A stretch of 38,912 nucleotides of DNA from a virus: the IMG/VR virus record IMGVR_UViG_3300010356_002141; one strand, given 5' to 3'. Below are positions 32,676 to 33,716 of this stretch, in pieces; position 1 is the first letter of the stretch; every line of letters starts with the position of its first letter. Below the pieces are notes generated by a model. The model was not told where the DNA came from. It searched no databases and worked only from the letters and a program-made list of their open reading frames with translations. Both the position numbers and the translations under genes were made by a program.

Positions 32676-33716
32676 ATGTCTAGAAGAGATACATTAAAAA
32701 TACTGGAAATTGACGGAGGAGGACAGAGAGGTTATCTACCACTTAAGTTTCTAGAGTTATTTATTCAGCAATGGGGAGTTGATCCATCTAAAATATGGCA
32801 AGAGTTTGATGTAATTTGCGGGACTTCCGTAGGCGGAATTATGGCTTTATCATTAGCTTTTGGCTTAACTCCTGCTGAGATGTCTCCTTTTTTTACTACA
32901 CAAGGACCATACATTTTTAGTTTATCTTCAATTATTCCGTCTTTGCGTCCAAACTTGCCTGCTAAACTTGCGTTAATTGCCACAAATACACCTTTTTATC
33001 AATCTTCTGGACCCACTGCTCAAAATTATGGTTCTGGATTATTATACAAAACTGTTCAGGATACATTTAAGATTAACGGAATACCTGCAACTCTTCAAAA
33101 TCTAAAAACTAAAGTTATAATTCCTACTTATGAATTTGATACTAAACGATATGTATTATTTTCAAATCTTAATTACCCAGAATTTACTGGACAGAATGAA
33201 TTAATAAGTAATGCAGCATTAGCAACTGGAGCAGCACCAGTATATTTACCGCCTTTAACCATGAATGGTCATGTTTATAAAGATGGTGGTATATATTGTA
33301 ATAACCCTGCACAATTTGGAAAGGCATTAGCTCAAATGATTAAACCAACTGCTAGAAGGGTTTGTATACTTTCTTTAGGTACAGGAATAGGCCAAATGGG
33401 ATTTGACCCAGGAATACCAGACAATCCAAATGACCCACCACCTCAAATTAGTACAGTTGAAGAAATATTTAGCCTATTTAGTATAGCTTCAACAGGTGCT
33501 CAGGAATCAATCGCACGTGCTTTTTTCCTAGAGTCTTCTTATACATTACAGCAGACTTATTATTATAGGTTCCAACCTCAATTGGATTCCACTAAAAATA
33601 CTGAATTAGATAACACTGACCCCGATATATTAGCTTATTATGAACAGACTGCGCAAACTGTATTTAATAACGATATTGACAATATTTCAACTTTCATAGG
33701 GCATTTATCTCTATGA
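32676..33716 (+). CDS. Patatin-like phospholipase
   Basis: Oxyanion motif DGGGQRG, nucleophile elbow GTSVGG and catalytic Asp motif KDGGIYCNNP appear in the canonical order. Confidence 0.85.
   Translation: MSRRDTLKILEIDGGGQRGYLPLKFLELFIQQWGVDPSKIWQEFDVICGTSVGGIMALSLAFGLTPAEMSPFFTTQGPYIFSLSSIIPSLRPNLPAKLALIATNTPFYQSSGPTAQNYGSGLLYKTVQDTFKINGIPATLQNLKTKVIIPTYEFDTKRYVLFSNLNYPEFTGQNELISNAALATGAAPVYLPPLTMNGHVYKDGGIYCNNPAQFGKALAQMIKPTARRVCILSLGTGIGQMGFDPGIPDNPNDPPPQISTVEEIFSLFSIASTGAQESIARAFFLESSYTLQQTYYYRFQPQLDSTKNTELDNTDPDILAYYEQTAQTVFNNDIDNISTFIGHLSL

Follow-up and report, generated by a model that had tools for sequence, protein, structure and literature searches.

Why does a virus encode a patatin-like phospholipase in the midst of its late genes, and with which of its neighbours does this enzyme work? 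The question is raised by IMG/VR virus record IMGVR_UViG_3300010356_002141, a stretch of 38,912 nucleotides (nt) that was analysed at its full length (hereafter, the window), in which an open reading frame (ORF) of 346 amino acids (aa) with the motifs of a patatin is located between the gene for the large terminase (terL) and the genes for the tail fibres. A first-pass annotation, made from the sequence itself, offered three roles for the product, namely a virion-borne enzyme of entry or exit, an effector directed at eukaryotic membranes, and a lysis accessory. The comparison of related loci reported here identifies the first fibre gene (fib1), and more precisely the conserved N-terminal module that it encodes, as the constant partner of the patatin gene. 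This pairing suggests, short of proof, that patatin and fibre act jointly on the envelope of the host cell.

Two-way coupling of the patatin gene and a fibre N-terminal module

The ATG of the patatin gene follows the terL stop codon after a gap of 2 nt, and the patatin stop codon overlaps the fib1 start as ATGA at 33713..33716, exactly as first described. Both the 2-nt gap and the 4-nt overlap recur in the closest named relative of the window, Megaira polyxenophila phage MAnkyphage_25.80 (OP381185.1; hereafter MAnkyphage), where the structural genes are syntenic with those of the window and the arrangement is already annotated as 'terminase - patatin - tail Fiber'. Across 88 distinct members of the patatin family, the two junctions proved to be of different kinds. 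The upstream gene belongs to 21 unrelated families, which include a post-adaptor protein, the SU10 adaptor, the P22 portal, two terminase types and an outer membrane beta-barrel protein; terL occupies this position in 8 of the 88 and does so in the MAnkyphage-like lineage alone. Downstream, the ORF matches a hidden Markov model (HMM) of the fibre module in 65 of the 88 (53 distinct sequences), and those without the module follow distant, non-family patatins or are among five cases in which a gene is inserted or a gap occurs. The exact 4-nt ATGA overlap is present in 57 of 71 distinct patatin-fibre pairs, with 7 more spaced within -1 to +5 nt, and the fib1 N-terminus stood behind the patatin in all 21 phage loci that were compared first. 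The association also holds in the reverse direction: when viral contigs were scanned with the fibre motif alone, 58 loci were recovered, and a family patatin lies upstream on the same strand in each of the 57 that have upstream DNA. All patatin neighbours in the related loci examined are structural or packaging genes, so that the initial assignment of the gene to the late structural operon, as opposed to a free-standing moron, stands.

The pair also appears to move as one. Between the window and MAnkyphage, protein identity is 93% for the portal, 91% for the capsid, 92% for TerL and 88% for the tail tube protein gp12 (75-93% over the structural genes compared), as against 37% for the patatin and 35% for the fibre N-module, and the mosaic boundary between the two genomes lies exactly between terL and the patatin gene. 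Given the 91-93% identity of TerL, portal and capsid, these low values indicate that patatin and N-module are swapped as a unit. Patatin divergence correlates with fibre N-module divergence over the 71 pairs (r = 0.62); within four backbone groups, the correlations with the N-module and with the upstream gene are 0.58 and 0.22, 0.95 and 0.88, 0.85 and 0.76, and 0.82 and 0.46, respectively. The N-module is on average 42% identical, compared with 27% for the remainder of the fibre. Patatin and fibre N-module thus constitute an obligate, translationally coupled, two-way gene pairing that is independent of the phage backbone and is exchanged as a unit. Judged by sequence comparison, the patatin gene and the fibre N-module together make up a mobile module of two genes. 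A functional link to terL was considered and rejected, given that the adjacency is lineage-specific and that a recombination boundary separates the two genes; of the originally described position between terminase and fibres, the fibre side is the substantive part and the terminase side is incidental. The strictness of the pairing in both directions yields a precise and cheap hypothesis, namely that the patatin forms a complex with the fibre module of about 90 aa. The module itself has no match to a Pfam or PHROG family, and its best PDB match (E 0.0014 over 29 residues) is not significant; Ser11 and Ser36 are near-invariant in the module alignment (A3), and P12, G15, G27, I40 and D41 are further conserved positions of the fibre.

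A protein search retrieved 314 relatives of the patatin, most of them 54-93% identical and located on contigs of 30-60 kb, and an exhaustive profile search (E <= 1e-30) delineated about 162 family clusters at 50% identity. A profile scan of representative genomes of 185,579 bacterial and archaeal species found only distant patatins (24-34% identity), and the same isolate and metagenome-assembled genomes (MAGs) gave no match to single-sequence patterns; by these scans, the family seems restricted to contigs of phages. Because the only cellular patatins found are distant, there is no prophage or host clue for the family. Among 50,697 phage records, MAnkyphage holds the sole family member (37% identity) and is the sole genome in which family patatin and fibre module co-occur, two other matches being distant patatins (24-25%). 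Being absent from cultured phages, the family has escaped experiment.

The family contigs originate from marine (TARA), freshwater lake, soil and wastewater samples, span a GC content of 27-51% and represent at least four backbones, among them MAnkyphage-like genomes, SU10-like genomes with GroEL/GroES, genomes with a P22-type portal directly upstream of the patatin, and others with a Terminase_3-type terL. The nearest isolates of the SU10-like carrier backbones infect free-living Pelagibacter and Roseobacter. GroEL (Cpn60) and/or GroES-like (Cpn10) genes are located in the structural regions of these SU10-like phages (L103, 2733-4409; L004, 18825-19217; L006, 755-1150). In six loci of one sub-lineage (L149, L150, L218, L219, L230 and L234), the gene directly upstream of the patatin encodes a 226-aa OmpA-like outer membrane beta-barrel protein with a signal peptide. 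A phmmer survey for ankyrin-repeat (Ank) genes found them in the MAnkyphage-like subset alone but missed a Pfam-annotated Ank gene of the SU10-like phage L006. In L006, an ankyrin-repeat gene (11164-11793) lies between the patatin gene and the fibre N-module gene, a rare break of the ATGA coupling.

The patatin fold and its relation to CBASS lipases

Residues 12-212 of the ORF match the Pfam family Patatin (PF01734) with 75.7 bits (gathering cutoff 27.7; E 7e-21), far beyond chance. The three motifs on which the gene was originally recognised, DGGGQRG, GTSVGG and KDGG, occur in this order, and in an alignment of 30 family sequences the residues G14, G15, G16, G49, S51, G53, D203, G204 and G205 are invariant, with R18 kept in at least 90% of the members; over 100 distinct family ORFs, GxSxG is present in 98 and DG[GA] likewise in 98. 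The AlphaFold2 (AF2) model, built from 29 family sequences, consists of one patatin domain (predicted local distance difference test, pLDDT, 86.9; predicted template modelling score, pTM, 0.88), and residues 240-248 are its only stretch with pLDDT below 50. In Foldseek comparisons, template modelling scores are 0.64-0.74 to CapV, CapE, potato patatin and iPLA2-beta, reaching 0.70-0.74 (E 1e-17 to 1e-18) for 9kh6, 8zr9 and 1oxw, and PlpD, VipD and ExoU rank well behind these four. Profile search and structure prediction therefore both bear out the initial family assignment. No signal peptide or transmembrane segment was found in the patatin, the first beta-strand of which begins at residue 6, and the protein is acidic (whole-protein pI 4.9; family range 4.1-4.9). 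The product is an enzyme of the patatin fold whose catalytic dyad is intact, and phospholipase or acyl-hydrolase activity is predicted for it.

Sequence and model comparisons both place the CapV-type lipases of the cyclic oligonucleotide-based antiphage signalling system (CBASS) closest to the window patatin among characterised proteins. The PADLOC effector-lipase HMM matches it at full length (residues 5-340, 173 bits), and a PDB profile search retrieves the CBASS lipase structures 9wn1, 9kh6 and 8zr9 with E 1.7e-35. The score against NCBIfam NF041079 (CBASS_lipase) is 140.4 bits, under the equivalog cutoff of 200 bits. In AbCapV, binding of cyclic GMP-AMP (cGAMP) requires F147, K149, D159, E207 and R279 (PMC12480259); in a comparison by sequence alignment, the first four correspond to L161, S163 (invariant in the family), Q173 and L218 of the window protein, and R279 falls outside the aligned region. 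No gene for a CD-NTase (cGAS/DncV-like nucleotidyltransferase) was found in the window or in the related loci examined. The patatin was accordingly rejected as a CBASS effector, from which it departs in three of four defining features (equivalog score, cGAMP-contact residues and CD-NTase neighbour). Shared ancestry of the family with CapV-like bacterial immune effectors is nevertheless probable. The patatin of Wolbachia WO prophages, which the first-pass annotation had brought in for comparison, is a more distant relative (23.8% identity, E 4e-10).

A variable surface loop, which includes the disordered part of the model, is a hot spot of domain insertion in relatives. Members of the P0070 type carry a beta-rich insert of 90-130 aa at this loop, and P0194 has about 300 aa of repeats there. 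The P0070 insert, within which no Pfam match was found, recurs in three other proteins of the L103 structural operon, of 372 aa (encoded just after the capsid gene), 308 aa and 197 aa (the post-adaptor protein), as well as in ORFs of L112 and L231. Within L103, one beta-rich domain of about 85 aa, without a Pfam match, is thus common to four proteins of a single structural operon, the patatin loop insert included (6105-7223, 7235-8161, 9415-10008 and 10001-11449); this domain looks like a promiscuous virion decoration domain.

Genome context, nearest relative and lysis genes

An exact direct repeat of 127 bp at the two termini of the window (1-127 and 38786-38912) indicates that the whole contig is a complete circular phage genome of about 38.8 kb; in the circular genome, the portal ORF listed at 34..1710 truly begins near the window end. 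Three of the window proteins are deposited at NCBI as HNQ68369.1-HNQ68371.1 within a 'MAG TPA: Bacteroidales bacterium'. Among these, HNQ68370.1 is the exact window patatin, automatically named 'patatin-like phospholipase family protein', and the fibre is a 'hypothetical protein'. The Bacteroidales label is at variance with Megaira, to which the nearest named phage is assigned, and is probably a binning artefact. The window encodes a 101-aa ankyrin-repeat protein (Ank_2, 57.6 bits; 26070-26375, + strand), as does MAnkyphage; such proteins are characteristic of phages and bacteria with an intracellular life in eukaryotes. The ORF at 27990..28406 (+) has a weak N-terminal match to Tad2 (Thoeris anti-defence 2; 23.1 bits, cutoff 25), and in L003 the equivalent region ahead of terL contains a gene with a precomputed match to PF11195. 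The gene at 4059..4565 has a MAnkyphage homologue (86% aa identity) annotated as a lytic transglycosylase.

Table 1. Coordinates of the patatin, its motifs, the adjoining genes and the lysis genes in the window.
Feature	Residues	Position	Strand	Basis
o-spanin-like ORF (LSGC lipobox)		15687..15929	-	Lipobox
i-spanin-like ORF, N-terminal transmembrane segment		15859..16092	-	Overlaps o-spanin-like ORF, Rz/Rz1-like
Lipobox protein (LIAC)		16094..16285	-	Lipobox
DUF1064 gene		within 15687..17220	-	
T4-type endolysin		16583..17038	-	Phage_lysozyme, 127 bits
Holin candidate, 61 aa, single transmembrane segment		17035..17220	-	Transmembrane segment; end overlaps endolysin start
Large terminase (terL)		31210..32673	+	Terminase_6N, Terminase_6C
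Patatin-like phospholipase, 346 aa		32676..33716	+	PF01734, PADLOC effector lipase, AF2, Foldseek
DGGGQRG, oxyanion-hole/phosphate-binding motif	13-19	32712..32732	+	Sequence
GTSVGG, nucleophile elbow, catalytic Ser51	49-54	32820..32837	+	Alignment
KDGG, catalytic Asp203	202-205	33279..33290	+	Alignment
Variable surface loop	~240-258	33393..33449	+	AF2 disorder; domain-insertion hot spot in relatives
Fibre-1 (fib1), 515 aa		33713..35260	+	MAnkyphage homologue annotated 'tail Fiber'
Conserved fibre N-terminal module, ~90-95 aa, NFISPVTGR...PSPxLIDxRLDxxxLR		33713..33997	+	Module HMM, alignment A3
Fibre-2 (fib2), 789 aa		35218..37587	+	Pfam Phage_T7_tail, PHROG tail-fibre families
Three small ORFs (78, 71 and 126 aa) after the fibres		37602..38664	+	Homologues behind fibres elsewhere

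The family matches of fib2 and the annotation of the fib1 homologue in MAnkyphage (Table 1) agree with the early description of the downstream genes as fibre-like. The fib2 product combines a duplicated motif resembling the N-terminal part of the T7 fibre with a variable C-terminus, and both its N- and C-terminal parts are common to cassettes in other backbones. The duplicated motif, of about 34 aa (DPTNAQDAATKNFVVNYVDSAVDNSFGPNVSLPF), lies at residues ~134-167 and ~283-316 and explains the T7-tail-fibre-N matches; fib2 overlaps fib1 by 43 nt. No family match was found for the three small ORFs that come next; their homologues follow the fibres in L003, L004, L008, L019 and L022 and often travel with the cassette. 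Just upstream of terL (29799-31142, +) lies the gene for an acidic 447-aa protein that has four or more hydrophobic segments and matches no family. In L022 and L187, its homologues immediately precede the patatin, so that this protein may be another accessory of the patatin-fibre module.

The window also carries a canonical holin-endolysin-spanin-like cassette on the opposite strand (15687..17220), about 15 kb from the patatin gene (Table 1). With such a cassette elsewhere in the genome, the patatin is unlikely to be the essential lysis enzyme. Replacement of the endolysin, as proposed for WO, was rejected for the window because of this cassette, and no small holin-like gene with a transmembrane segment adjoins the window patatin.

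Functional readings and comparison with known systems

The reading that we favour, with a probability of roughly 45%, is that the patatin is a fibre-docked phospholipase that is carried on the virion and acts on envelope lipids at the site of adsorption. Within the three roles listed at the outset, a virion-borne entry enzyme is the best fit, albeit an unproven one. A more specific version, in which a virion patatin docked on the fibre N-module stays latent until receptor binding and the pair serves as a portable cassette among several lineages of uncultured aquatic and soil podoviruses, is advanced more tentatively. Starting from the fold, the catalytic motifs and the gene linkage, which are observed, we infer a physical complex, its presence on the virion, its substrate and the timing of its action along the following lines. 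Translational coupling would set a fixed proportion of patatin and fibre, and the two proteins would form a complex; the acidic patatin, which has no membrane anchor of its own, would be placed by this complex on the virion at the fibre. The same complex might, speculatively, keep the patatin latent inside the producing cell. Once the fibre binds a new host, the patatin would hydrolyse acyl esters of outer membrane lipids beside the receptor, and this would ease penetration by the short podovirus tail. In phages of this type, a virion-carried lytic transglycosylase cuts the cell wall during entry, and the lipid step would complement the product of the gene at 4059..4565, a predicted lytic transglycosylase by its homologue.

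Two further lines of evidence are consistent with the proposed complex on the virion. CapV attaches to membranes via a large basic surface (PMC12480259); the patatin family is acidic by whole-protein pI and the patatin has neither a signal peptide nor a transmembrane segment, which suggests that it needs a partner. The P0070 insert is common to several proteins of the structural operon, and this provides circumstantial support for exposure on the virion. Accessory domains common to several virion proteins typify exposed structural components.

Several points weigh against a fibre-docked virion enzyme. The argument from the insert applies to a subset of the relatives that excludes the window protein, and the AF2 model of the long P0070 form (alignment A4) is of low confidence (pLDDT 41). 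No fusion of patatin and fibre was detected among the 150 best family representatives; the long matches in this search are plant or bacterial tandem patatins or carry loop or N-terminal insertions. A role in fibre maturation or assembly, or any host-specific late function, would also produce tight linkage. A phospholipase active in the cytoplasm while virions assemble would endanger the cell that makes them, and lipopolysaccharide, of which the outer leaflet of the Gram-negative outer membrane mostly consists, is no classical substrate of patatins.

The alternatives explain parts of this evidence. The patatin could be a late accessory of lysis or exit that is not part of the virion and attacks, from within, the inner or outer membrane of the bacterium or a membrane derived from the host, so as to hasten or finish release, with its place beside the fibre due to both genes being late and host-specific. 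Its location in the late operon is compatible with such a role, given that a scan in which promoter and terminator counts were at chance level showed no terminator-like site from terL to the fib2 start, as is the lack of a signal peptide, which fits action from inside; a patatin-based lytic cassette has been proposed for WO (PMC9203015), and the CapV-type relatives kill cells by hydrolysing the membrane from the cytoplasm (PMC12480259). We nonetheless hold this role to be unlikely, given that the window has a holin candidate, a T4-type endolysin and a spanin-like pair of its own, that the WO argument depends on the absence of endolysin, holin and spanins, that no holin-like gene adjoins the patatin, and that complete reciprocal co-occurrence and ATGA coupling with one fibre module across at least four backbones would not be expected of a lysis gene. 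Somewhat less probable still is an enzyme of fibre maturation or assembly, acting, for example, by acyl transfer to a conserved Ser or Thr of the module or as a dedicated assembly factor and absent from the particle or present there in traces. The obligate, co-translational linkage, specific to the N-module and not to the rest of the fibre, would suit this role well, the near-invariant Ser11 and Ser36 would be candidate acceptors, and enzymes of the patatin/cPLA2 fold form acyl-enzyme intermediates and can transacylate. Against it, neither lipidation of tail fibres nor a fibre chaperone with the patatin fold has a precedent known to us, and the genes of known fibre chaperones usually lie downstream of their fibre genes. 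The large surface domains inserted in the patatin loop are also more easily reconciled with an exposed structural component than with a cytoplasmic factor of transient action.

The endosymbiont host assigned to MAnkyphage and the ankyrin-repeat proteins encoded by the window and its close relatives point in another direction, to a phage of an intracellular bacterium that deploys the phospholipase against host-cell or vacuolar membranes in order to cross them; in the cited literature, Rickettsia Pat1/Pat2 and ExoU-type patatins target eukaryotic membranes. The spread of the family over marine, lake, soil and wastewater contigs with a wide range of GC content weakens this option, and so do the free-living hosts of the isolates nearest to the SU10-like carriers, a fold and sequence much nearer to those of CapV and potato patatin than to those of ExoU and VipD and, with the caveat of the missed gene in L006, the detection of Ank genes in the MAnkyphage-like subset alone. 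The host assignment of the window phage is moreover tentative, NCBI having binned the contig with a Bacteroidales MAG, and we consider such an effector quite improbable. A captured CapV that acts as a cyclic-nucleotide decoy or sponge, or a phage-borne toxin of abortive infection or exclusion, would account for the fact that the best sequence relatives are CBASS lipases and would be in keeping with the weak Tad2-like anti-defence match in the same genome. The score below the equivalog cutoff, the different residues at the aligned cGAMP contacts and the lack of a CD-NTase in the window and the loci examined speak against it, the strictly conserved catalytic residues are at odds with a pure sponge, and the coupling to the fibre is left unexplained; this possibility appears highly improbable.

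The gene and its position are already known from annotated public records (OP381185.1 and HNQ68370.1). The statement in the first-pass annotation that no phage phospholipase with a defined role was known in such a context accordingly holds for function and not for the arrangement. In the searchable literature we found no description of an obligate pair of patatin and fibre N-module, of its portability across backbones or of its CapV-like affinity; the reports on phage patatins that we found comprise the hypothesis of a 'lytic cassette' in WO and passages that list patatins generically as auxiliary metabolic genes. Tailed phages are known for enzymes that attack capsule, O-antigen and peptidoglycan. 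To our knowledge, no phospholipase tied to a phage receptor-binding apparatus has been characterised, and no lipid-directed counterpart of the tailspike depolymerases has been described in tailed-phage virions. If the patatin does ride on the fibre, a testable lipid-attacking step would be added to the breach of the outer membrane by short-tailed phages, and the phage side would be using a fold known above all from the suicide effectors (CapV) with which bacteria counter phages.

Among known systems, CapV and CapE (AbCapV, PDB 8zr9; 9kh6; 9iom) resemble the window patatin most closely, being single-domain proteins of about 330-350 aa with the patatin fold, homologous over the full length and endowed with the same catalytic apparatus of GGGxRG, GxSxG and DGG. 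The window protein differs from them in its acidic whole-protein pI, in having no CD-NTase partner and in its location in a phage structural operon, coupled to a fibre gene. The WO patatin is likewise encoded by a phage of an intracellular alphaproteobacterium and located near tail genes; it adjoins holin-like and ankyrin genes, and a 'lytic cassette' was proposed for it in genomes without endolysin, holin and spanins (PMC9203015), whereas the window patatin is flanked by terL and a fibre gene. The MAnkyphage patatin (UXM65450.1, recorded merely as 'patatin') belongs to the same family and has the same terL-patatin-fibre arrangement, and its identity to the window protein is as low as 37% because patatin and fibre module have been exchanged. 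Tailspike depolymerases, O-antigen esterases and virion peptidoglycan hydrolases are, similarly, enzymes of the host-recognition module that are exchanged together with receptor-binding proteins; their targets are polysaccharide or peptidoglycan, and as a rule each forms a domain within the fibre or spike itself, in contrast to the window patatin, which is a separate protein with the fold of a lipid esterase. Mycobacteriophage LysB is a phage lipid esterase that acts on the outer lipid layer of the host, but it is a cutinase-like alpha/beta hydrolase encoded beside LysA and a holin, neither of the patatin fold nor linked to a fibre.

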